From assembly GCA_963662545.2 (NCBI GenBank), contig CAXXLL010000003.1, positions 1,440,001-1,504,000 on the forward strand: a stretch of 64,000 nucleotides of DNA, written 5' to 3'. Of this stretch, positions 1,334-57,909 are shown piece by piece (position 1 is the stretch's first letter; each line of letters opens with the position of its first letter). Made by a program: the position numbers and the translations under genes. The notes under the pieces were generated by a model that was given only the letters and a program-made list of their open reading frames with translations, did not search any database and had not been told where the DNA came from. Source of the DNA: Gammaproteobacteria bacterium (GTDB taxonomy: Bacteria; Pseudomonadota; Gammaproteobacteria; Ga0077536).

Positions 1334-3023
1334 ATGGGCCACCAGGTGGTTTTGCCGGCTGCATCGCTGATATCTGCCGACCAAAAGGCACAACAGGCGT
1401 GACTTCGATAGCCGTCTCAATTGCTACTTCCAACATTCTTGGTTGACTCGGCTCTTCCCATAGCCACGCTATAGCATTCTCCACCTCGTATGATTCGCAT
1501 ATCCGTATAGCCGGAATACCATACGCATTAAAGATCGCAGTGTTATCTATTTCAGCAAGTCCCCACGTGGAGGCGTGGAACCGCCCTTGAGAGATTTCAG
1601 TCTGGAGTTGACGCACGCTGCCATGAGTCCTGTTGTTCATGACAATGGTTTTTATAGGCAGGTCGTCCCGAACAACTGTAGCTAATTCTTGAATATTTAA
1701 TTGAACAGAGCCATCGCCTACTATGGCAACAATTGGCTCGCGGAAGTTTAATGCCGCTGATATCGACGCAGGAATGGCGGTTCCACAAGCGTGCAAACCG
1801 GTACTGGATATAAGTCGTTGCTTCTCGTTTAGCTTAAGCGACTGCGCCGCATACCACGTATGATGACCCGCGTCGACCACGAACGCGCGAGCACGTGCGG
1901 ATCTTTTCGATAAAGACTCGAAAAACGAATTGGGATCGATACCTTTTATACCTGTGCGCTCGAACGATGGGTTGTACGACTCCAAAATAGCATCAACACG
2001 CCGAATCCATTCCTGGGGGGCTTTAAAGTCACTGAGCTTATTCTCTTTCGTTATAGTGCTAATCACTGAATTGCAATCGGCGATCAGCGTGTTCCCTATC
2101 TTCATCCGCTTTCCTGCCTCTGCGGGATCGATGTCTACATGCCATACTGCCCTTTTCTGAGCAAATCTAGCTGGATCGGCCCCCAAGACAGCGTGATCTA
2201 CGCGTGATCCCAAGATAAGTACAAAATCGGCTTCACTCATGACTGTGTTGGCGGCTCGTGTCCCGTACATTCCGCACATGCCAATTTGCAAATTATTTAA
2301 TCCGGCAGCTACATCCAATCCTGCTATCGTGCTAACAACAGGAATACGAAAAGTTCTTGAGAGTTTCCGAAAATTTCTTCTGGAATTACGCGCTACACCT
2401 CCTACAAACAATATTGGACGATGAGCAGAATATAAGTCCCGGACGATTCCCGCGACATCTCCGGAAGAAACTGATTTGGTTACCGGTAGCTTCGGTACTT
2501 CGATGGAGACTTGCTGCACTTCGCCCATTTGTACGTCTAATGGAAAGTCAACGACAACTGGGCCAGGACGATCGCTCATCGAAACTCGATAAGCCTCAGT
2601 CAGAATTTCTGGGATCTGCGGAGCTTTCTTCGGAGAATATGTCGCTTTGACAATCGGGGCACACATGCCGGCAAAATCGCATTGCTGCAAACCCGATTGA
2701 CGAGACTCGGGCAAAAGCATTTCCAAGTAGCTTTGAACCTGCCCTCCCACATATAGAGCAGGGATACTGTCAAAATATGCACTCGCGATTCCCGAAACAA
2801 GGTTTATCGCGCCTGGGCCACTGGTTCCAATCGCTACGCCGGGACGTTCAAAGAGCCGCCCTTCTGTTTCCGCAGCGAATGCCGCGCTCTGCTCATGAGA
2901 CATTGCGACTAGGTTAAGCGATTTATGCTCCCCAATAGCATCCAATAAAGGAGCGATCATGCCTCCAGAAAGCGTGTATACGTGGCGAACTCCAAGCGCC
3001 TCAATAAAGTCCGCAAAATACCG

Positions 3024-4409
3024 GAGTTATAACGGAATCTGGTGTTTGAGCGAGTTGAATAAAGGCGGCGTATCTGGTTGAAATGTTGTTACCAAGCAGC
3101 AAGCCAACCAAAGAGGATACGCCACCATGAGAGAGAGTAACGTTGTTGAATTATCAGGTCGAGAAGGAATACCAGATCCGTTGACGGAGGTCTTGAGAAA
3201 CGGTGCTCGGGCTCTGATTGAACGAGCGGTTGAAATCGAGCTGGCAGAATATATGGCGCAGTATTCAGGACATCGCACGGTGGACGACAAAGCAGGTGTG
3301 GTTCGCAACGGCTATTTGCCGGAACGCCAGTTGCAGACGGGCTTGGGGCCGGTGACGGTGAGGATCCCGAAGGTTCGTTCGAAGCTCGGCGAGCCGGTGA
3401 CCTTCCGTTCAGCGCTGGTGCCGCCGTATGTGCGCAAGACAAGAACCTTGGAGGCGGCCGTGCCGTGGCTGTATTTGAAGGGCGTTTCCAGTGGCGAAAT
3501 GGGCGCTGCGCTGGAAGTTTTGTTGGGGCCGCAGGCGAAGGGCCTGTCGGCGAGCACCGTGTCGCGCTTGAAGCAGGTGTGGGCGCAAGAATACCGCGAC
3601 TGGTGCGAGGGGCGATTGGACCAAGACCGCTGGGTGTAGGTGTGGGCGGACGGTGTCTACAGTGGCCTGCGGGCGGAGCACACGAAGCTGTGTGCGTTGG
3701 TGGTGATCGGCGTCAATGAGCGAGGCGAGAAGCGTTTTTTGGCGATGGAGGATGGTGTGCGGGAGTCCACGCAGAGCTGGCGCGAGGTGTTGCTGAAATT
3801 GAAGTCACGCGGGATGAATATTCCCAAGCTGGCGATCGGGGACGGTGCCATGGGCTTCTGGGCCGCACTGGAGGAAGTCTACGGTGAGACCCGCCAGCAA
3901 CGCTGCTGGATGCACAAGACGATGAACGTGCTGAACTGCCTACCGAAGTCAGCACAGGCCAAAGCCAAGCAAGCCCTGCACGCGATCTGGCAGGCCGCGA
4001 CAAAGGCCGACGCCGAGAAGGCGTTCGAGCTGTTCCTCAAGACCTATGAACCGAAGTATCCCAAGGCGATCCTGTGCCTACAGAAAGACCGTGAGGAGTT
4101 GCTGGCGTTCTATGATTTTCCGGCACCACATTGGCAAAGCATTCGCACGAGCAATCCGATTGAATCCACCTTCGCTACGATCCGGCACCGGACCCGGCGC
4201 TCCAAGGGCGGTCTCTCTCGGGACGGCATGCTCCATATGATGTTCAAGCTGGGGCGGTGTGCGCAGAAGAATTGGCGACGCCTACGTGGATTCGACTACC
4301 TGGCCAAGGTGATTACTGGAGTTAAATTTGAAGATGGTATCGAGGTGACAAGGGTCAATCAGGTCGCCGCTTGATTCAACCGCCTGAACACCACTTTTGA
4401 CAATAACTC
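3024..4409 (+). mobile_element. IS256-family insertion sequence
   Basis: Imperfect terminal IRs GAGTTATAACGGAATCTGGTGTTT / rc GAGTTATTGTCAAAAGTGGTGTTC; 9-bp TSD AAAATACCG at 3015-3023 and 4410-4418. Confidence 0.93.
3127..4374 (+). pseudogene. IS256 (Mutator-type) DDE transposase with in-frame TAG at 3637-3639
   Basis: RNGYLPER, WV*VWADG, AIGDGAMGFW, QQRCWMHK, RTSNPIES motifs; both ORFs are in the same frame. Confidence 0.88.
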
Positions 4410-19114: not shown

Positions 19115-20059
19115 CTATAAGGATTTTGGATCCATGAACCCGTCGTCGTGCACAAGCCAGCGCACCAAATTCGGTTCCATCAGCTCTGTAATAAGCGATT
19201 CATACCGCCTGATCTGATCAGCGGTCAACACGCCTTCCCAGCGACGATTGGTGCCCTTGTGAAAGAAATTCTTACTGTCTTTCCACACCCCCCTACTGCT
19301 GCCCGGCGCACGCGTAGCGAAGTTGCGCTTCATCTCATCGAATGTGACCGACTGCACTAGCGCCGGCCAGACGTCCTCGTTTACCGGTATGTCGAGATAC
19401 GCGGCTATACGGCGCATCTGACCGTTCAGATCATCGAGCATATCGGCGAAATGAACACACAGGATATTGTCGAGGTGCCGGTAGTTCCACCACGTTTGTG
19501 CGTGATTATGGAGTGACCATGCCGGATAGCCGTCGCGTTCCCAGGGGTATAGGGATTTCGACATCCACTCATCGAACCCCTCGTTGATGTTTGTGGCAAC
19601 CGGCGGGACCTCGGGTCCTTTGCGTAGAGGATTATCGTTCAACGCCTGCACCACCTCCGGTTTCATGTTGCGGAAGTGATTCCACAGCGACATCCACACG
19701 TCGCGCCCGTCACGACCGACGAAGATGTAATGGACATTGTCGTAATAGGGCACTGCCGTGAGCGGTAAATGCGTCTTGACGTAACGGCGGTAGGTCATCG
19801 TTTCGACGCGGTCGAGGACGTCCTCAATGGGATGGTACATTGAGTCGATCCACGGTGAGAGTTCGTCCAGCGGTGCAGGAGGGTCCGGTGATTGAAAAAT
19901 AAGCGCCCCGCAGATCGCCTGTGTCCAGGTCGTGCCGCCTTTGTACGACGTCGAGATGATGACGTCACCGTCGCGCGGTTTGAAACCGTCCCAGCGCGTG
20001 CTGTCGAAGAACGTGTTCTGGTAAATACGAGTTACTTCTGGCAAGGAGGGCAACGACAT
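19115..20059 (-). CDS. PAPS-dependent sulfotransferase (Sulfotransfer_1)
   Basis: TSYKGGTTW (5'-PSB loop), KTHLP, GRDGRDVWMS, FFHKGTNRRW; RBS GGAGAG. Confidence 0.9.
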   Translation of the reverse strand: MSLPSLPEVTRIYQNTFFDSTRWDGFKPRDGDVIISTSYKGGTTWTQAICGALIFQSPDPPAPLDELSPWIDSMYHPIEDVLDRVETMTYRRYVKTHLPLTAVPYYDNVHYIFVGRDGRDVWMSLWNHFRNMKPEVVQALNDNPLRKGPEVPPVATNINEGFDEWMSKSLYPWERDGYPAWSLHNHAQTWWNYRHLDNILCVHFADMLDDLNGQMRRIAAYLDIPVNEDVWPALVQSVTFDEMKRNFATRAPGSSRGVWKDSKNFFHKGTNRRWEGVLTADQIRRYESLITELMEPNLVRWLVHDDGFMDPKSL

Positions 20060-20205
20060 TAAGTGCTCTCTCCATATTTTCTTAAGGTAACGGAACCGTA
20101 ACCCGTCCGGGAATCGATAATCAACTGACAAGAGCGATTGAAAACTTGGTTCTCGTCGTCGGACGGGCATAGCGGTTCCGGATTTGTGGAGGTCCGCTGT
20201 GGGTC

Positions 20206-21896
20206 CAGAGTGTGTGAAAACTCTGCATCAGATAAGATCTCCCTTTCGGTCCTGGGGAGTCGTCGATGAGCGGGTTCATTGAAGGCGCGGACCGCCGCCA
20301 AACAACGCTGTTTCCCGAGTGTCTGGACGATTATGTCGCTGAGGAGAGTGCGGTGCGGGTCATCGATGTGTTCGTCGATGAGTTGGATCTGTCAGGTCTG
20401 AGTTTCAGAACCGATGCGCATGAGACGGGTCGACCGGGGTATCACCCGGCGACGATGCTGAAGCTCTATATCTACGGTTACCTGAACCGGGTTCAATCGA
20501 GCCGTCGCCTGGAACGGGAGGCGCAGCGGAACGTGGAACTGATGTGGCTGACGGGTCGTCTGGCGCCTGATTTCAAGACCATTGCCGATTTCCGCAAAGA
20601 TAACGGTGACGCCATTCGTCTGGTATGCCGGGAGTTCGTGATGCTGTGCCGTAAGCTGCAGCTGTTTTCGGAAGCCTTCGTGGCGATAGATGGCAGCAAG
20701 TTCAAAGCGGTAAACAACCGTGACCGGAACTTCACGAAGGCGAAGCTGAAACGTCGGTTGCAGCAGATTGACGAGAGCGTTGAGCGGTACCTGGCGGAAA
20801 TTGCAAGTGCCGACCGCCAGGAGCGTGCGGTGTCAGGTGACAAGTCGCAGCGTTTGAAGGACAAGATCGAGGTACTGAAGGAAGAGATAGGCCGCCTAAA
20901 AAAGCTCGAGGTACGGCTCGAGGAGACGCCGGACCATCAGGTCTCACTGACGGACCCGGACGCGCGCTCGATGGCGACGAGCGGCCGTGGCAGCGGCATG
21001 GTGGGGTACAACGTGCAGACGGCGGTCGACACGAAGAGTCATCTGATTGTGGCACATGAAGTGACGAACGTAGGTCATGACCGGGCGCAACTGTCGAACA
21101 TGTCGGAGAAAGCCAAAGAGGCGCTGGATAAGAAGGAGTTGACCGTCGTTGCGGATCGCGGGTACTTCAGTGGCGAAGAGATCTTGGCGTGCGCTAAAGC
21201 CGGCATCACGACCTATCTGCCGAAACCGCAGACCTCGGGTAACCAGGCGAAGGGCTTGTTTGGCAAGCGCGACTTCATTTACCAACCCGAAGAGGATGCG
21301 TATGAATGCCCGGCCGGTGAGCGACTGATTTACCGGTTCACCCGAGTGGAGAAAGGCAAGCAGATCCGGCGCTACTGGAGTTCGGCGTGTCCCCGCTGCC
21401 CGATCAAATCTAAATGCACAACGGGTCGATACCGGCGCGTCAGCCGTTGGGAACATGAAGCGGTTGTTGAAGCGGTGCAGGCGCGATTGGATCGTGAACC
21501 TGACCCTATGCGTGTCCGCCGAGAGACGGTCGAGCATCCATTTGGCACGATCAAATCCTGGATGGGTTCGACCCACTTCCAGATGCGCATGCGCACGCTG
21601 AAACACGTTGGTACGGAAATGAGTCTGCACGTGCTCGCTTACAACATGAAACGCGTGATGAATCTACTGGGTGTCGCTACGCTCATCGAAGCGATGACGG
21701 CATGAGACCCTCTGTGGCCTCGAAAACTCCCTGATCCACGGCTTCACTGCCGGCTTCTGGGGCCGTTCTAAGGAATGTTCCATTAACTAACCGATCGCAT
21801 TGGACCGCGAGCGCGGCCGTCGTAACCGCGCCGCGTTGCGTCTGACGAGGAGTTCTCGACGTGATTCCTCTTCATTCCGAGTTTTCACACACTCTG
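20206..21896 (+). mobile_element. IS1182-family insertion sequence
   Basis: Perfect 18-bp IR CAGAGTGTGTGAAAACTC; 4-bp TSD GGTC (20202-20205, 21897-21900). Confidence 0.92.
20266..21705 (+). CDS. IS1182-family transposase
   Basis: GRPGYHP, SSRRLERE, PDFKTIADFR, AIDGSK, TDPDAR, ADRGY, RRETVEHPFGTIK. Confidence 0.92.
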   Translation: MSGFIEGADRRQTTLFPECLDDYVAEESAVRVIDVFVDELDLSGLSFRTDAHETGRPGYHPATMLKLYIYGYLNRVQSSRRLEREAQRNVELMWLTGRLAPDFKTIADFRKDNGDAIRLVCREFVMLCRKLQLFSEAFVAIDGSKFKAVNNRDRNFTKAKLKRRLQQIDESVERYLAEIASADRQERAVSGDKSQRLKDKIEVLKEEIGRLKKLEVRLEETPDHQVSLTDPDARSMATSGRGSGMVGYNVQTAVDTKSHLIVAHEVTNVGHDRAQLSNMSEKAKEALDKKELTVVADRGYFSGEEILACAKAGITTYLPKPQTSGNQAKGLFGKRDFIYQPEEDAYECPAGERLIYRFTRVEKGKQIRRYWSSACPRCPIKSKCTTGRYRRVSRWEHEAVVEAVQARLDREPDPMRVRRETVEHPFGTIKSWMGSTHFQMRMRTLKHVGTEMSLHVLAYNMKRVMNLLGVATLIEAMTA

Positions 21897-22049
21897 GGTC
21901 GTCAGCGGCCCCATCGCGGCAGCGCAGCACTGTTAAGCATTACGTCTGCAGTACCCTCGTAAGCGGTCGTCGAGTAACTTTCAGTGGTGTGTTAACCGAG
22001 GATGACGGCTTGCGGCCAGGAACAGACATGCCACTCTCTGGGCTGCAAA

Positions 22050-22536
22050 CCCTGAAGCGCGTTTTCAACATCGAAATCGAGATGATCATCGCAGCTGCAA
22101 AAGCTGCGGCGGCCACGTCAAGATCATCGCCTGCATCGAAGATCCGGTGGTGATTGAGAAGATCCTCACCCACCTCGAACGCCAAGATGCAACGGCCGCT
22201 GCCGCTCGTTTACCACCGTGTCGGGCGCCGCCCAAAGCGCGCTTGTTCGCCTGATAGACGCGCAACCACGCGAGTACGACCAGCAGCTGCGACACCGAGC
22301 GACGCGGCACGACTGCATGGACGCAGGAGGTAGAGCAACGCAGGGAGCGGTTGCCGAGAGTCGCTGTCGTGCCGCGGGTCGCAACCGTCGAAATATCGCG
22401 CTGAACTACAGGATTTCTCCCCGCTCAGGGGCGCAATTGCGGCCAACACCGCCTCGAAGCTCAGGTTGAAGACTGTTCGATGACCTGGCGATACCCGATG
22501 GAATTGCGGAAAAGGGCGTTTATTCGCCTTAGACTC
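22050..22536 (+). mobile_element. IS91-family 3' remnant with oriIS-like end
   Basis: LKRVFNI...CGGHVKIIACIEDPVVIEKILTHL C-terminus; end GGGCGTTTATTCGCCTTAGACTC; near-identical to 28970-29404. Confidence 0.75.
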
Positions 22537-22774
22537 CACCATAACAGGCGATGATGTAGGCATCGAAGTCGCCTGCTGCATCGCCTTTTTCGATTTCGTT
22601 CAGGATCCCGGGTACGCACATAACCTCGTCGTAATACGATTCGATCGAAGCCGGCGCGTAGTCCGGTGTCACGGCCACCACTTCGGTGCCGGGCGAGGCG
22701 ACCGAGCGGCCGGCTACTTCGTCCGCCGCGGTCATGTCGTCGGATGAATTTGGATTGATGATCATGATTTTCAT
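22537..22774 (-). pseudogene. Asp/Glu/hydantoin racemase, N-terminal fragment truncated by the IS91 end
   Basis: MKIMIINPNSS...PASIESYYDE...DAYIIACYG then IS91 sequence. Confidence 0.8.
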
Positions 22775-22912
22775 GGGAGGTTCTACTGTGTACGCCGCTG
22801 GCCCGGCTGGCGGTAGGGAGATTCGCCCGCAAGCGGGCGAATCGAAATCTGTTGCGTAATGTAGAACACCACCATAGTGTACGCACGTCGGTGACACGGC
22901 GCGCGGTCCAGC

Positions 22913-23977
22913 ATGGCTCAAGATCATTTTCCACACTTTACCTTTAGCGGCGATCCGCGCACCCGCGGGCTCGCCTATGGGCGGGCATTGCGCGATCGGA
23001 TCCACGCAACCTTTGCGGTGTACAACGAGCGGCTTTTCGTCAAAAGCCCATTGACGCAAGCCGAATTCATGGCGCGGGCTGAACGGGTACGCACAATGAT
23101 CGCGGAATTCAACAATGCGTTCGTCGAGGAACTCGATGCCATTGCCGATAGCGCGGACATCGCGCGCTGGAAGATCTATCTGCTGAACGCCCGCACCGAG
23201 ATCCTGAACGCCGAAGTCGGCGAATGCACCGCCTTGTGTTTTCCGCAATCGCGGGTGATGGGGCAGACCTGGGACTGGTTCGATGGGTTCGAAGAACTTG
23301 CCGTACTCGTGACTTATGAACGCCCCGATAGAACGCGGGTCTTGGCTTTCACTGAACCCGGCATGCTCGCCAAGATAGGCTTTAACAGTGCCGGCGTCGG
23401 CGTCTGCCTGAACTTCCTCGACCATAAGCACGCGCTCGACGGGGTGCCGGTGCATATCCTCACGCGCGCGGTTCTCGAGTGCGAAAGCGTCGATGCGGCA
23501 CGCCGCTCGATCGAACGGTCGGGCTTTGGTAAGTCCAGCCATTTTCTGATCGGCGATGCCGCCGGCGATGCGCTCAGCATCGAGTTCATGGGTGATACCT
23601 CGGCGCTGGTCGAACGCTTTCGCAACGCCTACCTCCACACCAATCATTGCATCTTCCCGGGTGCGCCGGCGGACGTGACCGAAGCGTCATCCTCGACCGC
23701 CTGCCGCCTGACGCGCGCCCGCGCCCTGCTCGAGTCAAACGATGAACGCACATTCGACGTCCTAAAGCACATACTGCTCGACGAACAGGGCGGGGATGTC
23801 GCGATCAACAACCCGTTTCATCCATCCGCCGTCTTCCCGGGGGAACGCATCGGTAGCTGCGGTACTTTCATCATGGATCTGACGCGACGCGAGATCCACG
23901 TGCGGAAAGGACCGCGTGATGTGAATCCGTTGCGCGTTTATACGCTAGACGGCGCGGCATCGGTCGCCGCGGCGTAA
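22913..23977 (+). CDS. C45-family autoproteolytic acyltransferase/hydrolase
   Basis: LNARTEI, GECT (Ntn Cys), GQTWDW, KIGFNSAG, HTNH. Confidence 0.88.
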   Translation: MAQDHFPHFTFSGDPRTRGLAYGRALRDRIHATFAVYNERLFVKSPLTQAEFMARAERVRTMIAEFNNAFVEELDAIADSADIARWKIYLLNARTEILNAEVGECTALCFPQSRVMGQTWDWFDGFEELAVLVTYERPDRTRVLAFTEPGMLAKIGFNSAGVGVCLNFLDHKHALDGVPVHILTRAVLECESVDAARRSIERSGFGKSSHFLIGDAAGDALSIEFMGDTSALVERFRNAYLHTNHCIFPGAPADVTEASSSTACRLTRARALLESNDERTFDVLKHILLDEQGGDVAINNPFHPSAVFPGERIGSCGTFIMDLTRREIHVRKGPRDVNPLRVYTLDGAASVAAA

Positions 23978-24021
23978 TCGCCAAAGCCATTGTCCGACAA
24001 ACCTGTGGCGTGTTGGCAGCG

Positions 24022-26392
24022 CTATCGGTTGGCGGACTCGGTCTCCCCGTCAGCCGCGAACGCTTGCTTGGTCTTGACCCGGGCGACGCCGTAACGCCGC
24101 GCGAGCGCCGGCGTAAACGTGAGGTCGAGCAGCCAGGTGATGACCAGCGTCAACGCCGCAAGCAGCCCGAATTCAGCCTGGCTGCGTAACTCGCCAACGA
24201 CGAGCGTGGCGAAACCCAGGCTTAGTCCCGCCGTCGTGAAGCTCACCGGCCGCACGACTACGGCGAGTGCATTGCCCAAGGCCGCGCGCTCGCCACCGGT
24301 ATGTCGCGCGGTTTCGCGCAGGCGCGCGAAAAAGTGGATGCTGTCGTCGACCGCAATGCCGAGCACGACCGAGGCGACCAGGCTCGTGGTCAAGTTGAGC
24401 GTGACACCACTCCAGCCGAGGATGCCGAAGAACGCCAGAATAGGTAAGACGTTAGGAACCAGTGCAACGGCCGCGAGCTTGAATGAACGAAACATCGCAG
24501 CCAGCACAAGATAGATCGGAATCAGCGCGGCTGACAGGCTTAGAACCTGACCGCGGGTCACATCGTCGAGGGTGCGCGCGATCAAGTACGAACTGCCGGT
24601 CACGTACCCGCGCAAGTCCGGCGAAAGTTCGCGCAACCGGTTTTCGATGCGGTCAGAGAGCCGATTGAGATCGGCGCTCGCCGCGACCCGAGTCCGCACT
24701 TGCAGCAGGGTGCTCATGAACTCGGGATCCGTGAATCACCGTACATCCTCGCTACCGCCGAGCAAGATGAGGTGGCTGGCCAAACCCTTCGAGTCCGGCA
24801 CCGGATCGTCATCAACCAGATCGGGTGCAAGGGCCCGCTCGAGTACACCGATATAGTCGAGCAAGGTATAGACCCCACCGATTTCCGGCTGTTCGAGCAA
24901 CCAGGTCTTGAGCTCGTCCAAGGCCTTGAGGGCAGGCGGCGTTTTGAAAGCATCGAACGTGTCGCTCTCGAGCACGATCTGTAATGGCACGGCGCCTGCG
25001 AAGACCTGACTCATGCGATCGAAATTGCGTCGCAACTCGCTGCCGGCTTGAAAATTGGCCAGGTAATCCGTACTCACGTTAATGCGCGCGACCCCGGCCA
25101 GCGAAAATGCGGTCAGCAACAGGCCGCACATCAGAAACACGCGTCCCTTCCGTTCCGCGAATTGCGCGAGCCAGGGGCCCAGCCGGTCAGCGCGGCGCAC
25201 CGCATCCGCGCGCGGGAGACCGGGCATGAGCACCAGACCGGCCGTTACGACGGTGAGCGCGGCCAGCCACGCCAAAACCGTGCCGAGACTTGCGAACGCA
25301 CCGAACAGACGGATGGAATCGATATCGCTGAAGGTCAGCGAGGCAAAGCCAATCGCCGTGGTGACGGCCGTGAGTGTTACCGGATACGCAACGTCGGCCA
25401 GGGCCGCCCGCGTCGCTCCGGCACGGTCCAAGCCGGCAGCGAAATGCCGATCGAAGTCACTGACGACGTGAATCGCGTAGGCGAATCCAACCACGTAAAT
25501 GGTTGGCGGCAGGATCACGGTGACATAGTTGAGGGAATGCCCGGACACCACGAATACGCCCAAAGTCAGAATCAGCGCGACGGCGTTCGCCATCGATGGC
25601 AACATGACGCCGCGTAAATGACGAAAACCAAGCGCGACGACCAGCAACGTGGCTGCGACCGCCAATGACATTACGCGAAAAAGATCGCGCAGCAGCAGTT
25701 GGCTGATTTCCAAGCGGACGTACAAGGGCCCGGAAAGGAATTGTTCGACGTCGCTCGCTTCTTCGCGCGAAGCGGCCCGGATATCGGCGACGATTCCGAT
25801 CAGCGTGCGCGCCGAAAGTCCGCGCTTGAAGCGCGCGGCGAGCATGGCACCGTGGCCGTCCCGGGACGGCGAGGTAGCCGGCATAGAGCGGGTTTTCCAA
25901 GACTGCGTCCCGCACGGCGAGCGCCGCCGCCGGCGTCTGGGGAAGCTCGCTCAGATATGCGCCGACCTCGGTAAAGTCCTCATAGACGCGTGTCTGGACG
26001 GCCGTGGCAAGGCTTTCCACGTGCTCGACGCCGGGCATGCGCTCGACCCGCCGTGTCAGACGCTTGAACGCGGCCAGTCGCTTGGGGGTGAAAAGGTCCT
26101 CGGCGACCCAGGCGACGAGCAGGAGATCGTCGCTCGAGTATCGAGCTCGGTCCTCGGCGACCCAGGCGACGAGCGAGTATCGATCGCGAACGGCCTCGAA
26201 CCTCGCGAGTTCGACGCCTTGCTGCGGCAACAAGGCACGCACGGAAGGATCGACTTCGAGTGCGAGCTCGAGACTCGGCCATTCGAGCAGGGGAACGAGC
26301 GCCGTCAGGGTCAAACCGAACATGACGGCGATGATGCGTCGCGGGCATGCGACCAGCATGTCGAACATCCGCGCAATCATGACTTGGAGCAC
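24022..26392 (-). pseudogene. MMPL/RND-family transporter, frameshifted into three ORFs
   Basis: LGIAVDDSIHF, VGFAYAIH, TAVTTAIGFASL motifs across ORFs 26392-, 25884-, 24717-. Confidence 0.8.
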
Positions 26393-26491
26393 TTACGCTA
26401 GCAGCTTTTACTTTCCGACCGTGACTTCAAACCGTTCGTTAAATACCTAGGGCTAAAATCTGCGCTACCCGCCTGACAGTGCGCGAATCGG

Positions 26492-27323
26492 TCAATGACC
26501 GCCGCGCCTGAGTTCGGAGAGTTCGAACATGGCGTCATCGAGATCGGGATCGATGGCGACTTCTTCGACGATAAAGACACTTTGAGTATTGAACTTGAGG
26601 TCTGACATCGTCGTGCGGAACGAGACCCAATGGCGCGAAGAAATCTGTTCGGGATCGATCGTCGACCATCTGGATCTCTTCGCGTTCGGCCGTAAGCTGC
26701 TTGCGCAAATCACCATTCGGCGCGAAGAAATCTGTTCGTATGGGCAGGCAGACCTCTTTATCGATGTAAAACCTGAGGAGACTGTAGTGTGCATTGTCGT
26801 CCGGTTTGACGGTCTCCATCACGTAGGCAGGAAAGCCATCGATGTCGGCATCCTCGACGCGAACGACTTCCTCGCGTTCGTCAACCCGATAGAAATATGA
26901 AAAATCTTCATACGTGAAATCCGTGCCGAGAATAGAGCCGAAAAATGATTCGCCGGTAACCCGTCTGATGCGCTTGATCATGGGTGAGTAGGACATATAA
27001 GACACGACGTTTTTCTCGGCATCGTCACTGATCAGGACCGCAACACCTTTCTCGTCGAGCGGCTCCAATACGCGCACGAGTATTCGAGAATCGTTAGTCT
27101 GCGAACGTTTCCAGAAGACCGTGCGCCTCGACTCGCGTACATGCCCGTTGGTGCCGATGACTTCCACTTTTTGCACCTGGGTCGCGGTTTCCGTCGGTAA
27201 CGCCCGATCTGCGCACTCGCGAACCTCGGGGTCTTCGATACGCGACGTATCGAAAGCGCATACGTTGAACGTCATTGCAAAAAGCGCGGCCCCGAATAGT
27301 GGGGCGCGTCGGTGATTCCGCAC
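26492..27323 (-). pseudogene. Outer-membrane lipoprotein-sorting (LolA-like) protein, frameshifted by a ~25 bp insertion
   Basis: KRIRRV, FGSILGTDFTYEDF, NGDLRK; C-terminus WVSFRTTMSDL...LRRGGH in another frame; upstream of MMPL as is usual. Confidence 0.72.
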
Positions 27324-27503
27324 GGGGATTCTCCTTTCGTGAATGTGGTGTTTTCCCGGAATTTACTTCGCCCGATCCAGGCTACCGGGAACGTATCATA
27401 CTTCCCTCAGCAACGCGGGCCGCTTATGCTTGTTCGGGTACTTTTACCTCAGGCGGTTAGCGTATCCAGGCCCCAAGTCCTTTCATTGTGCCGGAGTCGA
27501 CAC

Positions 27504-28031
27504 ATGACTGATGCCAGAAAATTCAATGAACTCATCGCGCGCCAGGAGATCGCGGATGTGATTTACCGCTACGCACGCGGCATCGATCGTCTCGATTTCG
27601 ATCTCGTTCGCTCGTGTTATCACAGCGATGCTTACGATGACCACGGTGCGTTTGCCGGCAATGTCGACGAATTCATCGAGGCCGCCGGAGTATTTTTGCA
27701 GCGTTGGACGGCGACGCAGCATTTCATGGGGAATATGCTTATCGAGATCGATGGTGATTTCGCCAGAGCCGAAACCTATGCGGTGGCCTACCATCGCCTT
27801 GAAGATGAACATGGCAACGGTAAAGACGACATCATGGGTATCCGCTAAGTCGATCGTTTCGAAAATCGAGACAGTGCGTGGAAAATTGCCTACCGCGTCG
27901 TCGCCACGGAATGGCGGCGGGTAGATCCGTTAAAGGGCGCAAGGCATCGCAACGAAATCGGCGTCTGGGGCCGCCGCGACAAAGACGACGTCATCAACTG
28001 GGTAATGACGGCCGCACCGCCCTCAGCTTGA
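27504..28031 (+). pseudogene. SnoaL-like/NTF2-family protein with premature TAA at 27846-27848
   Basis: RYARGIDRLDFD...DDHG...TQHFMGN...AETY, then GIR*VDRFENRDSAWKIAYR continues in frame. Confidence 0.8.
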
Positions 28032-28180
28032 GGCGGAACACCACTCGCGCGCATCTGTTCTGCCGATTACTTCCCACAAGCACTGACAATTTTTTCGTAT
28101 CGTCGCGAACAAAGCGAGCCTGTCTTGAACACCCATAGCGAACAGCAAAAATTGAGACCGCCGTCCTGCTGCAAGCAGAC

Positions 28181-29404
28181 AAGGCGCCGACGAGTGCTGA
28201 GCTGACCCACCTGACACACACCATCGCTCAGCGCGTCGGGCGCTTCCTGGAACGCCAGGGGCTGCTGGTACGCGATGCCGACGACTGCATGGATGCAGGA
28301 GGTAGAGCAACGCAGGGAGCAGTTGCCGAGAACAGCTATCTGTGCGCGGAGGCCATGGAAGCGGGGCCGTTCGATGAGCTCCTGGGTCACTCGATGATGT
28401 GCAGGGAAGCACGAATGCCGCGGAGCGCAGGGATGCGCTGGAGCGGCCACGTATCGCATCGCGGTGGGCCCGCACGCGGGCCGCAAGGTGTTCACCCTAC
28501 AGACACTACCGGACTGCAATGAGCCGTTCGTTGACCAGGTGGGCAGGATGCCCGGAGTACTTCATTGCGCGGTTGGCAGCGTTGGTGCCCAAGCCCAGAG
28601 TCAACTTGACCCGCTTGGATGGGGGACATCCCTGTCCCCCACCCTTCGGGCAACCTTCGGTTGTCCAAATTTATTCCAGATAAATTTGTCACGGCGTTTT
28701 CGCCCCCAACAGCGCGCATCGTGCGCGGGTGACGCCTTCCAAGCGCGCTAAGGGCAACAAGGCCAGCACGGCAGATGCGACGGACGGCCCAACACCGGTC
28801 GAACGCCGGGCAGCGATGGCCGGTTTTTGCTCCTGCAAAACAGGCATACATGCCATCCATGGCAATAACCTGGGCGCAGCGCCTGAAGCGCGTTTTCAAA
28901 GCTTCCGCGTCCTGCTCACGCCCCTGACCTACATCCCTGTAGGCCACATCGACATCGAGACCTGCAAGCGCTGCGGCGGCCACGTCAAGATCATCGCCTG
29001 CATCGAAGATCCGGTGGTGATTGAGAAGATCCTCACCCACCTCGAACGCCAAGATGCAACGGCCGCTGCCGCTCGTTTACCACCGTGTCGGGCGCCGCCC
29101 AAAGCGCGCTTGTTCGCCTGATAGACGCGCAACCACGCGAGTACGACCAGCAGCTGCGACACCGAGCGACGCGGCACGACTGCATGGACGCAGGAGGTAG
29201 AGCAACGCAGGGAGCGGTTGCCGAGAGTCGCTGTCGTGCCGCGGGTCGCAACCGTCGAAATATCGCGCTGAACTACAGGATTTCTCCCCGCTCAGGGGCG
29301 CAATTGCGGCCAACACCGCCTCGAAGCTCAGGCTGACGGCTGTTCGATGACCTGAGGATATTCGATGGGCTTGGGGGAAAGGGCGTTTATTCGGCCTATA
29401 CTCG
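28181..29404 (+). mobile_element. Degenerate IS91-family element (transposase with internal deletion and five small insertions) plus oriIS-like end
   Basis: KAPTSAEL, RIAVGPHAGRKVFTLQT, FIARLAALVPKPRVNLTRFHGVFAPN, AMTWAQRLKRVFNIDIETC recovered after removing inserts; end GGGCGTTTATTCGGCCTATACTC. Confidence 0.85.
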
Positions 29405-29767
29405 ACTCTTCGTCCTCATCTACCTCGAGCGCAAAGACACGTCAACTATTGCCCCGCGTTTGCCACCGTCTCGAGGGCCGCCGCAGGTCAGTTTGTTCGA
29501 TTGAGACAGCACACAACTACGGTGAAAGGCTCACGGCTGCGACACTGACGAAGCGCCACGGATGCTGTCGGCTCGATGGTGGGAACTGTCGGAAATTCCG
29601 CTTATGCGAGCGACTTCTCCTGGTTCGAAACGTGCGATGACGGTTGATACCACACCGAAACGCCGGTTGTGGCCGTTGGGTAATCCGCAGATACTCGACG
29701 GGGCTTGCGAGAGATCGCCGAAAGATAGCGTTTGTGTTTCCTATACTTGTCCGTGGAGGTTTTTTGA

Positions 29768-30223
29768 TTGGCCAAGCTCCGCATTAACCAGCGAGATTTC
29801 CATGTCAGCGCAGCCGCGGATACGCCGCTATTGTGGGTGCTGCGTGACGAGCTTGGCCTCACTGGGACCAAGTACGGTTGTGGCAAAGCGCTATGCGGCG
29901 CTTGCACCGTATTTGTCGAGGGGAAACCTGTACGTGCATGCACCCTACCTCACACCGCGCTCGAGGGTAAGGAAATCACGACAATCGAGGGGATCGATTC
30001 GGAGGAATCGCGCGCGGTGCGTGCCGCCTGGCTCGAGATCGACGTCGCGCAATGCGGCTACTGTCAGTCGGGGCAGATTCTTTCTGCAACCGCGTTGCTT
30101 ACGCACAATCGTAAACCAAGTGACGACGATATCGATCGTGCGATGGACGGCAATATTTGCCGCTGCGCAACCTACGCCCGCATCCGCGAAGCGATCCATC
30201 GAGCGGCGGACACCTTGTCATGA
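29768..30223 (+). CDS. iorA: Isoquinoline 1-oxidoreductase alpha-like [2Fe-2S] subunit
   Basis: [42 protein letters not shown]. Confidence 0.88.
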
Positions 30224-32400
30224 GTGACTCGGTCTTCAAACTCAACCGACGGGATTTCGTGAAATACGGACTGGCTGCCGGAAGCAGTCTGACGTTGGGG
30301 GTTGGGTTCGACCCTGCGCTGGCCGCTATAAATAGTGCGCGAGATGGTGTCGATACGGATCGTACGTTCGCGCCGAACGCCTTCGTTCGAATCGATAGCG
30401 ATAGCATCGTCACGATCATCTCGAAGCACCTGGAGATGGGACAAGGAATTTATACCGGCCTTCCAACCCTGGTGGCCGACGAACTCGATGCAGACTGGTC
30501 ACAGATCCGAGTCGAGGGCGCACCAGCGGACGCTGAACTCTATAACAATCTTAATTGGGGATCTTCCCAAGGAACCGGCGGCAGTTCGTCGATGCGCAAT
30601 TCGTATTTGCAAATGCGGCGCGCAGGCGCGACGGCGCGCGCAATGTTGATCGGTGCGGCAGCAACAGTTTGGAACGTTGCGCCGAAAACAATCACGATCA
30701 ATAAAGGAGAAATCACACACAGAGCGAGCGGGCGCAGCACAACATTCGGGGAAATGGCAATGCGAGCTGCCACCCGACCGGTGCCGCAAAAAGTGCCGCT
30801 CAAGCATCCAGTCGATTTTGTCCACATCGGAAACGACGTCGCGCGCCTCGATAAATCGCATAAGGTCGATGGAACCGCGATCTATACGCAGGACTTGCGC
30901 CTGCCCGGTATGCTCACCGCCCTCGTGCAACACCCGCCGCGCTTCGGCGCGAAAGTGAAGTCATTCGATGCCAGCGCAACGAAACACATACAAGGGGTCA
31001 AAGCCATCGTCGCGATCGAGTCGGGGATCGCAATCGTTGCCAAAAACTTCTGGGCAGCGAAGCAAGGCCGCGATGCGCTGCAGGTCGAATGGGATGAAAG
31101 CGACGCTTTTCGCGGCAACAGCGACGAGATACTCACCTACTTTCGAACGCTAGCCACCCAGCCGGGAAAGATCGCACGCCACGACGGCGACGTAAGCGCG
31201 GCGTTTGCAACAGCTGAGACGATCATCGAATCGGCTTACGAATTTCCCTATCTCGCACATGCGACGATGGAGCCGATGAACTGTATCGCACAAGTCACGG
31301 ATCGCGGCTGCGAGCTCTGGTACGGCGCACAGTCACAGACTCGCGATCAACGTCACGTCGCCGCCGCGCTCGGGATCGATTTTTCGAATGTGACGATCAA
31401 CATGCTCTATGCAGGCGGTTCATTCGGACGCCGGTCCGACCTCAACAGTGATTACGTCGTCGAAGCGGCGCGCATAGCCCAAGCGGTCGGGGGCGATCGC
31501 TCGGTGAAACTGGTATGGACGCGTGAAGACGATATGCGCGCCGGCGCCTATCGTCCGCTTAATTACCACGTCCTACGTGGCGCACTTGATGCACGAGGTC
31601 GAATTACCGCGTGGCAACATCGGATAGTAGGTCAGTCCATCTTAGCCGGAACGCGTTTCGCCAAAGGCCCGGAAGCGCTCGACCGCACTACATTCGAAGG
31701 CGCGTCGACGTTGCCTTACGAGATCCCGAACATTAAAGTCGATGTACACAATCCGCTGGTCGGGGTCCCAGTGCTTTGGTGGCGCTCCGTCGCCCACAGC
31801 CATACCGCATACTCTACCGAAACCTTCCTCGACGAACTCGCGCATACCTCGGGTAAGGACCCTGTTGCATTGCGCTTGGACCTACTTAGCAACAATAAAC
31901 GCCAACAAGACGTCGTGCGATTGGCCGCCAAGCGAGCCGGCTGGGACAAACCGCTGCCTAAGGGGCGCGGCCGCGGGATCGCAGTACACGAGGCGTTCAA
32001 GACTTGTGTTGCCGAGGTCGCGGAAGTATCAGCGAACGACGATGGAACGTTCTCGGTGGACAAGGTGACCATAGCAGTTGATTGCGGCATTGCAGTGAAC
32101 CCCGATATTGTCATCGCGCAGATGCAAGGCGGCATGGGTTACGGTTTGTCTGCTGCACTCGGCGACGAAATTACGATCGACGATGGTATCGTGCAACAAG
32201 AAAACTTTGATACGTACCCAGTGCTGCGCATGTCCCAAATGCCGGACGTCGCCGTCCACATCGTGGATTCGGGTAACGACCCGAGTGGTGTTGGTGAACC
32301 CGGCGTGCCGCCGATCGCGCCGGCGGTGGCGAACGCATTGTTTTCGGCCACCGGAAAACGCTATCGCCGACTGCCCTTGAAGCGGTCGAGCGAGGGCTGA
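30220..32400 (+). CDS. iorB: Isoquinoline 1-oxidoreductase beta-like molybdopterin subunit (Tat-like leader)
   Basis: [46 protein letters not shown]; ATGA overlap with alpha subunit. Confidence 0.88.
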
Positions 32401-57497: not shown

Positions 57498-57535
57498 GGT
57501 TTCTGGCGTGCGGTTTCGATGAGCGGTGTGCTTAA

Positions 57536-57697
57536 GGAATCTCTGAATAAGTCATGGCACATCTGCCTTGCCCATGAAATTGCGGAGCCTTACGTTACGA
57601 ACCTTAGCCCTAATCCCCGCTATGGCCTGCGATTCGTGCCTTGATCTGCACGATTTCATGCACATTTCAGACGCACCATGACTTATTCAGAAGTTCC
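57536..57697. mobile_element. MITE with IS5-like ends (162 bp)
   Basis: IR GGAATCTCTGAATAAGTCATGG / rc GGAACTTCTGAATAAGTCATGG; TTAA on both sides. Confidence 0.7.
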
Positions 57698-57909
57698 TTA
57701 ATTTACCAATTCATACTATAGCGATAGCATGCGGATGCGTGCATTTTTTTGAAAGTGATGTCTCAGATGATAAGACGTATCAATGTTTTTAATGGTACAC
57801 GTCATTCGCCCGCAAGCGGGCTCCTACGGTATGGTCCGCCTCAGAGCCCGCTTGCGGGTGAATCGAAATCTGTCTGGTAATTCTGATCAGCACTTTATAG
57901 AAAGTCGGC

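Follow-up and report, generated by a model that had tools for sequence, protein, structure and literature searches.

Hairpin micro-elements of 47–76 bp recur at the same positions of IS91-family transposase genes in a gammaproteobacterial family

Elements of the IS200/IS605 family move by a 'peel-and-paste' mechanism, group II introns are ribozymes of 0.6–2.5 kb with a reverse transcriptase that are spliced from RNA, and the small dispersed repeats of cyanobacteria are mobile units, a few tens of bases long, that integrate into other repeats. Mobile group II introns reportedly home into insertion-sequence genes, one example being RmInt1 in ISRm2011-2. As described in the accessible parts of the literature, REP and REPIN elements are mobilised by RAYT (TnpA-REP) and form superfamilies tagged with GTAG or CGTC (PMC3116915, PMC3333891, PMC8266576), and IS200/IS605 elements have miniature derivatives known as PATEs (PMC10055086, PMC3119063). 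Here we compare with these systems a 64,000-nucleotide (nt) stretch of a gammaproteobacterial genome (the window; contig CAXXLL010000003.1, positions 1,440,001–1,504,000), in which an IS91-family transposase gene is riddled with short hairpin elements. Elements of this kind occupy the same few nucleotide positions of already diverged IS91 transposase genes throughout the bacterial family. The best explanation overall, to which we give a probability of roughly 60%, is that they are site-preferring ('homing') hairpin micro-transposons that live mainly on one IS91 subfamily, knock it out and are moved in trans by a single-strand (HUH-type) transposase.

The gene in the window is a dead IS91 transposase gene with at least seven element copies, five complete ones inside it, one truncated and one behind the stop codon. 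What is left of it is a truncated remnant of an IS91-family (HUH Y2 rolling-circle) transposase on the forward strand (28181–29121, stop codon at 29119–29121). Ungapped tblastn aligns it with amino acids (aa) 212–495 of an intact 498-aa homologue; about aa 313–363 are deleted and the pieces are spread over three frames. The homologue (open reading frame (ORF) 1937–3433 of locus L021) and a second intact relative (ORF 1937–3421 of L023, 494 aa) were found by querying contigs of one genome per species with a clean 196-aa stretch of a paralogue, and both come from metagenome-assembled genomes of uncultured proteobacteria. The alignment fixes the five insert junctions exactly where a first-pass annotation, made from the letters of the window, had placed them. 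That annotation had also held that the frame is restored by removing five inserts. The five inserts are real, but the remnant starts only at aa 212, lacks the deleted segment and carries six inserts, and therefore fails as an intact gene. Its 130-aa C-terminal ORF, searched alone, gave no Pfam hit; PF04986 (Y2_Tnp) is reached above the cut-off by paralogous copies, with 20 matches in the source genome (G000; 5.58 Mb in three contigs, here C-numbered).

The first insert (28282–28329, sense, + strand, junction RDA^ENSY) is a 48-nt element of a family that we call T47, with the hairpins CTGCA-TGGA-TGCAG and GCAAC..GTTGC around GCAGGGAGC, and GTAG between them. It is followed by a 52-nt T51/52 element with two GGA-loop hairpins (28396–28447, sense, +, HSI^TYR). 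The third insert, a 72-nt T72 element antisense to the gene (28617–28688, −, TRF^HGV), has four hairpins (H1 CAAATTTAT/ATAAATTTG, H2, H3 GCCC-GAA-GGGT and H4 ..ACA-GGGA-TGT..) and an in-frame TAA, and is the top-scoring match (88.6 bits) of the covariance model R1 introduced below. The fourth, a 49-nt antisense T49 element (28819–28867, −, AAM^TWA) with the hairpins TGCCA-TGGA-TGGCA and TTTTGC-AGGA-GCAAAA, is the sole copy of its family in the source genome; the contigs of public run X3 sum to a depth of 353 over it and to about 22 on the unique sequence to its sides. The fifth is a 47-nt antisense T47b element (28900–28946, −, VFN^IDI) with the hairpins CCTACA-GGGA-TGTAGG and GCG..CGC around GAGCAGGA. 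A sixth, incomplete insert consists of the 3' 20 nt of a T72b element (28542–28561, +, sense) at the IS91 site after aa 363. The identical string, with the same next codons, ends a complete 72-nt element at C3:2203159; at the window locus a deletion has taken the remainder of the element together with about 50 IS91 codons, and a loose contig end at 28541 (public run X11) reveals the missing part.

Two further T47 copies lie at 29177–29224 (+), 55 nt 3' of the transposase stop codon, and at 22310–22357 (+). The first-pass annotation had deduced from this recurrence that the element is mobile. Mobile it is, but these two copies represent one event, because both lie in a single 300-nt block (22095–22394 and 28962–29261) duplicated at 99% identity. 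Just upstream of the block the identity is only 74%, and such a 99% tract beside a 74% flank indicates that the IS91 remnants are mosaics, formed by recombination or conversion between copies. All six complete copies in the window fold as DNA with z-scores of −2.0 to −6.4 against shuffled sequences, and have the paired GGA-loop hairpins originally described for them.

Empty counterparts of these sites exist. A contig of run X3 joins 28395 to 28448, skipping the 52 nt of the second insert without an ambiguous base, and other public contigs skip 48 nt at the first insert (run X3), a net 47 nt at the fifth and a net 72 nt at the third; at the fourth, a single diverged contig is shorter by a net amount of about 47 nt. 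Paralogues or other strains may be the source of these contigs, which do show the existence of the empty forms. The site of the fifth insert is empty at 22068|22069, in a second IS91 C-terminal remnant of the window (22024–22254, +, tblastn; sister to the 28-kb copy in the tree described below, support 99/96), and in two other copies, and the site of the second insert is empty in one copy (L009). Ambiguous junction bases number none or one at the second, third and fifth inserts and five (GCCGA) at the first, and no target duplication was found at any junction read. The inserts are real insertions without target duplication. The proposal that they are tiny non-autonomous mobile elements is borne out by filled and empty sites, exact boundaries, the lack of target duplication and nested copies.

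Iterated nhmmer searches of the source genome delimited families of 18 copies (T47), 12 (T51/52), seven (T47b), one (T49) and 37 (T72). For T72, the covariance model R1, built from 20 sequences of which 15 are IS91-resident, raises the count to 58 (a match lies, for example, at C3:2213702–2213777). A model of this kind had been suggested in the first-pass annotation, and it reveals strong covariation in the stems of the 72-bp family. In the 20-sequence alignment 95.3% of pair cells are paired, compared with 21–43% when partners are slid; double-sided changes occur in 63 cells, compared with 20.6 in shuffles, and 10 of 19 pairs covary. H1 has the form CAAATTnnnn/nnnnAATTTG around a CNGGA loop, H2 is a short hairpin, H3 reads GCCC-GNA-GGGY and H4 ..CA-NGGA-TG.., the stems varying among copies and the loops staying constant.

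Members of the superfamily are 47–72 bp long here and up to about 76 bp elsewhere, are non-coding and have two to four hairpins each, with two or three GGA loops on one strand. At least one hairpin loop of the form C-ANGGAT-G is common to all families. Hairpins with the core CA-NGGA-TG and at least three further pairs (hereafter marker hairpins) number 114 in the source genome, whereas seven control cores put in place of this core gave 5, 6, 6, 8, 9, 21 and 41 hairpins. The hairpins begin at both element ends or 3–6 nt inside them, and the two within one element are unlike in sequence and in direct order. T47 has GTAG 2 nt ahead of its second hairpin and T51 a 5' end GACG (CGTC on the other strand); T47b, T49 and T72 are without a fixed tetranucleotide tag, and T72 has GNAG in two loops. 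The elements insert in either orientation and into one another. [quoted passage not shown] An Rfam search of window positions 20000–31000 gave nothing at E ≤ 1, and on nine T47-bearing loci it gave just a tmRNA and a chance lncRNA match. The C-ANGGAT-G loop is also carried, on other stems, by larger, intergenic-looking multi-hairpin repeats of this genome (C2:1034212, C2:1218336, C3:1299319–1299495, C3:857706–858197 and others), one of which is a 158-nt tandem array.

These elements are strongly concentrated in IS91 transposase genes genome-wide, as the window had led the first-pass annotation to expect. Forty-eight marker hairpins lie in 29.5 kb of IS91-like DNA (100-nt margins included), six in 717 kb of other repeats of at least 400 nt and 60 in the remaining 4.84 Mb, which makes IS91 130–200 times denser than the other repeats or the rest of the genome. 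The 58 R1 matches divide into 25 in IS91 (20 kb of IS91-like DNA), eight in a TIR-bearing MITE and 25 elsewhere, several of those outside IS91 lying directly behind long ORFs; the 72-bp family is more than 100-fold denser in this IS91 subfamily than elsewhere. All 12 copies of T51 and all seven of T47b are IS91-associated. Repeats of at least 400 nt at 85% identity or more make up the 717 kb, or 12.8%, of this unusually insertion-sequence-rich genome.

Concentration is not exclusiveness. The first-pass annotation had seen no element outside IS91 sequence, which holds for the window and is false for the genome, and its suggestion that the elements select DNA that moves as a single strand is not supported in that form: T47 occurs in a DDE transposase gene and in a TIR-bearing MITE, a T47b variant occurs in an IS3-family gene, about half of T72 lies outside IS91, and intergenic DNA holds copies as well. 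The DDE gene has a Mu-transposase C-terminal domain, and its two T47 copies are one event. The MITE, about 200 nt long with the ends CTAGCAGCCTGTCGGACTTAGG, carries T47 beside its right end (loci L011–L017, at C2:115.8k, 1874.5k, 2146.1k and 1377.8k and C3:876.7k, 879.8k and 2359.5k); some of its copies additionally contain 66-nt T72-like units, one or two in number, as well as a T47-like 48-mer lodged inside T47.

Within IS91 the positions are few. Among 24 IS91-like regions of the source genome, 15 have 40 gaps at no fewer than 14 sites, and nine are gap-free, one of them intact (gaps of at least 30 nt are flagged by this block analysis, and some contain two elements). The sites lie after aa 87/88, about 100, 188/189, 233, 243, 268, 276, 360–368, 385, 429, 438, 443 and 458, and also behind the stop codon. 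T47b is found at one site, TTCAA^CATCGA, in all seven copies. The ATG^ACC position filled by T49 in the window is, to the nucleotide, that occupied by the unrelated T51 element in other IS91 copies. Copies so afflicted can be free of stop codons, which are absent from 494, 438 and 351 codons despite 8–9, seven and four inserts. One of them (L010, C3:2045516–2049229) is near full-length, has the 8–9 inserts and shows no stop across its 494 aligned codons; behind its 52-nt insert a +2-nt change puts the sequence back in frame, and an ORF of 356 aa (1432–2502, −) spans three inserts as a result. Either insertion far outpaces other decay, or selection still acts on the genes. An intact 494-codon copy free of inserts lies at C3:2499011–2500489.

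The pattern extends to further genomes of the bacterial family. R1 has matches in 51 of 81 genomes, 37 of 51 good-quality genomes and 13 of 18 genera. IS91 coding sequence adjoins the element in 16 of the 19 best-scoring T72 loci of these other genomes, and positions after aa 384/385, 363, 303, 87 and 69–71 recur there in the block analysis; site 385 holds different T72 subtypes depending on the genome. Three of the 81 genomes contain a 24-nt T47b word, which in two of them (G085 and G086, of another genus) stands at site 438, as in the source genome. The T47b variant mentioned above is 47 nt long, departs from the 24-nt core by three mismatches and splits an IS3-family transposase gene at about 512–562 of a G085 contig (L087, C107:1–2058), between HTH_Tnp_1 and HTH_21, so that a second transposase family has been invaded. 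A 30-nt T51 word is present in five of the 81 genomes, at sites 88 and 188, again as in the source genome, for G046, G050 and G084; in G041 it seemed by eye to be at site 188 and is unflagged by the block analysis.

Such shared positions could also go back to one old invasion, a single entry into an ancestral IS91 whose defective copy was then spread in trans by intact relatives, also across genera, with conversion keeping the inserts alike. Insert combinations common to several copies (385 + 429 + 438, for example) are as this scenario predicts, the mosaic remnants with their 99% tract beside 74% flanks lend it some plausibility, and the intact copy could serve as the helper. We nevertheless find it unlikely. 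Same-site inserts are 89–100% identical and their 60–90-nt flanks 54–94%; the IS91 copies share 51–82% of their amino acids, one near-duplicate pair excepted. Their differences by codon position (93/69/221 or 92/77/229, for instance) are dominated by third positions, insert-bearing copies included, which implies that they diverged as working genes and consequently not while holding frame-breaking inserts. Gene conversion as the means of spread is rejected on the strength of synonymous flank differences within 6–10 nt of identical T47b inserts, since conversion tracts would have had to stop within a few bases each time. Nor does a single entry account for different T72 subtypes, and even the unrelated T49 and T51, sharing single sites.

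Phylogeny leads to the same conclusion. In a maximum-likelihood tree of codons 386–495, with inserts excluded (27 rows, after removal of four that had under 150 filled columns), every T47b-bearing copy neighbours an empty one. Seven changes, gains or losses, are needed, of which at least six are forced by well-supported branches; a single origin of T47b appears in 0% of bootstrap trees, and the approximately unbiased test rejects one clade (p = 7.6e-48). This tree is blind to the difference between gain and scarless loss. Together, identical inserts at the same site of diverged genes and the changes on the tree indicate repeated site-specific insertion.

A different objection is that these are commonplace REP-like repeats with hardly any choice of insertion site, seen in IS91 only because it is old, unselected DNA. 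Thirty-three of the 58 R1 matches do lie outside IS91, many directly 3' of long ORFs, and intragenic REPs are described in other bacteria in the accessible part of one study (PMC3733652). The IS91 remnants are indeed old, most other insertion sequences of the source genome being near-identical young copies. Even so, we regard this as quite improbable, in view of the 130- to 200-fold density contrast, the complete IS91 association of T51 and T47b and the exact same-site recurrence in diverged copies and in other genera. Moreover, there is no marker hairpin in the 64-kb window outside IS91 sequence, despite an apparent split transporter gene there.

The loops themselves invite a reading at the RNA level, in which the hairpins are CsrA/RsmA sites acting as two-site clamps, sponges or silencers of transposase mRNA, and their spread is secondary. 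In the accessible part of one source, the form bound by CsrA/RsmE with high affinity is an ANGGAX hexaloop closed by a C-G pair (PMC4005645), and this is the loop common to the elements. The source genome has one csrA gene, and the G-T pairs of H3 favour folding of the GGA strand. Furthermore, the ribosome-binding site of the IS91 subfamily lies within a CGC-AAGGAN-GCG hairpin a few bases 5' of the ATG in seven of seven copies looked at (L021 at about 1925–1936, L023, L105–L108, C2:725389 and C3:2048454 among the places where it occurs); as RNA, this hairpin would have the textbook shape of a CsrA-repressed start. We still think that regulation is hardly the main function. IS91-resident 72-nt elements are mostly antisense (seven sites versus two sense), T47b and T49 always so, the Rfam searches described above gave no match to any of them, and signs of transcription are limited to two low-depth metatranscriptome contigs. 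A T72 element behind csrA is lineage-specific, present in G002 and not in G001, G004, G012 or G019. In the source genome this copy (L020, C3:2532594–2532675) shares the strand of the sole csrA gene and follows about 130 nt downstream of it, with a conserved 50-nt block coming next; the downstream spacer of csrA is some 250 nt shorter in G001, of the same genus, and shorter too in G004, G012 and G019.

That the inserts are reversible intervening sequences, taken out by scarless DNA excision or before translation so that riddled genes stay usable as on/off switches, seems very improbable: the stop-free codons, the third-position bias between insert-bearing copies, the +2-nt frame repair in L010 and a tree that cannot separate gain from scarless loss would all agree with it, but a metatranscriptome contig retains the fifth insert, T72 at site 385 has an in-frame stop, the window copy is truncated, deleted and certainly dead, matching take-off and landing codons are confined to the first insert, and we know of no mechanism for elements so small. 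Ribosomal bypassing as a general rule was rejected on that last count of codons (GCC..GCC at the first insert only), and RNA removal because the contig from RNA run X19 keeps the fifth insert (depth 2.3, DNA carry-over possible).

Returning to homing micro-transposons, the elements encode nothing, so that the enzyme must act in trans. They would be non-autonomous and move as folded single strands, by a scarless cut- or copy-and-paste reaction for which an HUH-type transposase is the candidate; hairpin ends, scarless junctions and mutual insertion fit with single-strand transposition. IS91 may be preferred through its single-stranded rolling-circle intermediates, or through single-stranded transfer of plasmids that carry IS91, and the elements probably travel between genomes aboard insertion sequences. 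That the loops look like CsrA sites may be coincidence or reflect a secondary use.

Several observations weigh against this explanation, first among them that the search for a mobilising enzyme was negative. None of the five RAYT-like genes or the two IS200 fragments in the source genome (seven Y1_Tnp matches, the IS200 TnpA being represented by two fragments of 78–82 aa only) is flanked by such hairpins, with the single exception of one marker hairpin about 1 kb from one gene. RAYT or IS200 was rejected as the mobiliser on this ground, and also because an IS200 beside T72 in L074 has unrelated ends. Y1_Tnp is present in 54 of the 81 genomes and Y2_Tnp in 38, and neither tracks T72, in a sample where related genomes are non-independent and many are incomplete. 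Of two complete genomes, G019, with five T72 matches, lacks any Y1_Tnp match, and G091, which also carries T72, lacks any Y2_Tnp match. The IS91 transposase, which would make the elements miniature IS91 derivatives, was rejected because element ends are unlike IS91 ends (right ..GGGCGTTTATTC..CCTATAC, left AGCTGCGGG..); blastn-short of the inserts against 10 IS91 end regions gave only 7- to 12-nt words at chance level. The T47b junction GAAGCT|TTGAA resembles an internal hairpin, GAAGCTGTTGAAC, near the IS91 right end, a single case that we set aside.

Target choice raises further difficulties. There is no replication-strand bias, with 32 versus 34 elements outside IS91 and 24 versus 24 inside, the origin and terminus having been placed roughly, from cumulative GC skew only; this and the unflanked Y1 genes tell against simple forms of HUH mobilisation. 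The readable target words are short (GA^AA or TT^TC for T72, TTCAA^CATCGA for T47b) and are also found unoccupied, TTCAACATCGA at 18 places in the source genome; they therefore do not account for the preference for IS91. No complementarity between T47b and its target flanks was apparent by eye. Three of our own measures call for caution as well. Other insertion sequences of the source genome are younger than its IS91 fragments, so that the density contrast is inflated; the 16-of-19 count is biased upwards, as R1 was seeded mostly with IS91-resident sequences; and mosaic remnants can disturb the tree.

A more far-reaching version can be put forward only tentatively, and we are inclined to doubt it: an undescribed class of 47- to 76-bp site-specific elements may home on conserved IS91 positions family-wide, passing scarlessly in and out and switching otherwise intact genes off and perhaps on again. 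Such elements would be hyperparasites of a rolling-circle transposon, with a recognition that goes beyond the 3- to 5-nt words of known single-strand transposons and a loop that makes a perfect CsrA site.

If the homing explanation is true, the elements would rank with the smallest mobile elements that we know of, and a 47-bp string of two hairpins would suffice for mobility and narrow target choice. They would also be a naturally occurring example of a selfish element that polices or parasitises a second one, with one insertion-sequence subfamily disabled at the same codons in many genera, and a ready system in which to ask how a single-strand enzyme, or another agent, reads a long target. 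The presence of CsrA-type loops in the elements, in larger intergenic repeats and in the transposase ribosome-binding hairpin suggests that mobile DNA and a global RNA regulator may be connected, which can be tested. On the practical side, the inserts break gene calls and, when overlooked, make IS91 copies seem more decayed than they are.

Other features of the window may be recorded here. The sequence GGGCGTTTATTCGGCCTATAC (29381–29401, +) is a conserved, ori-like right-end motif (oriIS) of the IS91 subfamily; it also lies 3' of the transposase gene in L105, L107, L021, L023 and L108 and resembles no micro-element end. An insertion sequence with DUF772 and DDE_Tnp_1 domains is found at 20266–21705. 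Three consecutive ORFs of 231, 382 and 311 aa at 24022–26392 (−) look like one split membrane transporter gene, and a 26-nt exact repeat has its copies 54 nt apart at 26095–26174. A repeat of about 190 nt at 57515–57706, with the TIRs TTAAGGAA..CATGGCACATCTG / CAGACGCACCATG..TTCCTTAA, is not related to the hairpin elements and, at a short-repeat coverage of about 117, outnumbers every other short repeat of the source genome.

Among known systems, as far as they are portrayed in the accessible parts of the papers cited, the closest are REP and REPIN. Like these, our elements are short non-coding hairpins that form families with covarying stems and make no target duplication; RAYT-like Y1 genes are present in the source genome, and REPs, too, are sometimes intragenic (PMC3733652). 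The GTAG and CGTC tags of REP have counterparts in some families only, namely in the GTAG of T47 and the GACG at the start of T51. In contrast, copy numbers are 1–58 here and hundreds for REP. The two hairpins of our elements differ from each other and are in direct order, whereas a REPIN consists of like REPs in inverted order and is mostly extragenic. RAYT genes are flanked by their own repeats, and no Y1 gene is flanked by our elements. Unlike REP, moreover, T47, T51 and T47b lie mostly in transposase genes at recurrent exact sites, and their conserved part is the loop ANGGAT.

With IS200/IS605 elements and PATEs our elements share terminal or near-terminal hairpins, scarless integration that duplicates no target, exact empty sites and, as in the ..GA^ of T72, a short target word beside one end. 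They differ from PATEs in that no autonomous Y1 TnpA partner with matching ends was found in our searches, the IS200 ends in L074 being different. Compared with IS200/IS605 they show no lagging-strand bias, measure only 47–76 bp and choose sites far more narrowly than a 4- to 5-nt word would allow. The palindromic elements of Rickettsia and intragenic REPs also lie in ORFs, at times several per gene (PMC3733652), and T51 (51 nt) and T72 (72 nt) fit in with them, their lengths being divisible by three and open to read-through. Here, however, the hosts are inactivated transposase genes, elements of 47, 49 and 52 nt shift the frame, and insertion recurs at one and the same site in paralogues and in different genera. 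Sponge RNAs of the Csr/Rsm type (CsrB, RsmX/Y/Z) likewise have several ANGGAX loops on C-G-closed stems 10–30 nt apart (PMC4005645); our elements differ in having no promoter/terminator unit and no Rfam match, and in being dispersed insertions in genes, in both orientations.

Two more distant systems complete the comparison. Like mobile group II introns, the elements use a defined site in a transposase gene, recur there in paralogues and ride on their host element, but at 47–76 bp they have no ribozyme fold, and an RNA contig retains the insert. To the small dispersed repeats of cyanobacteria they are unrelated in sequence, architecture and host group, and we know of no IS91 specificity of those repeats. 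Our literature search, the coverage of which did not extend to supplementary tables, found no account of hairpin micro-elements targeting IS91 genes. The elements are small non-autonomous hairpin transposons that lack the flanked RAYT gene and inverted REP pair of REP/REPIN and the same-ended partner and strand bias of IS200/IS605 miniatures, and what sets them apart is a well-supported and unusual habit, the repeated, site-exact colonisation of one insertion-sequence family.

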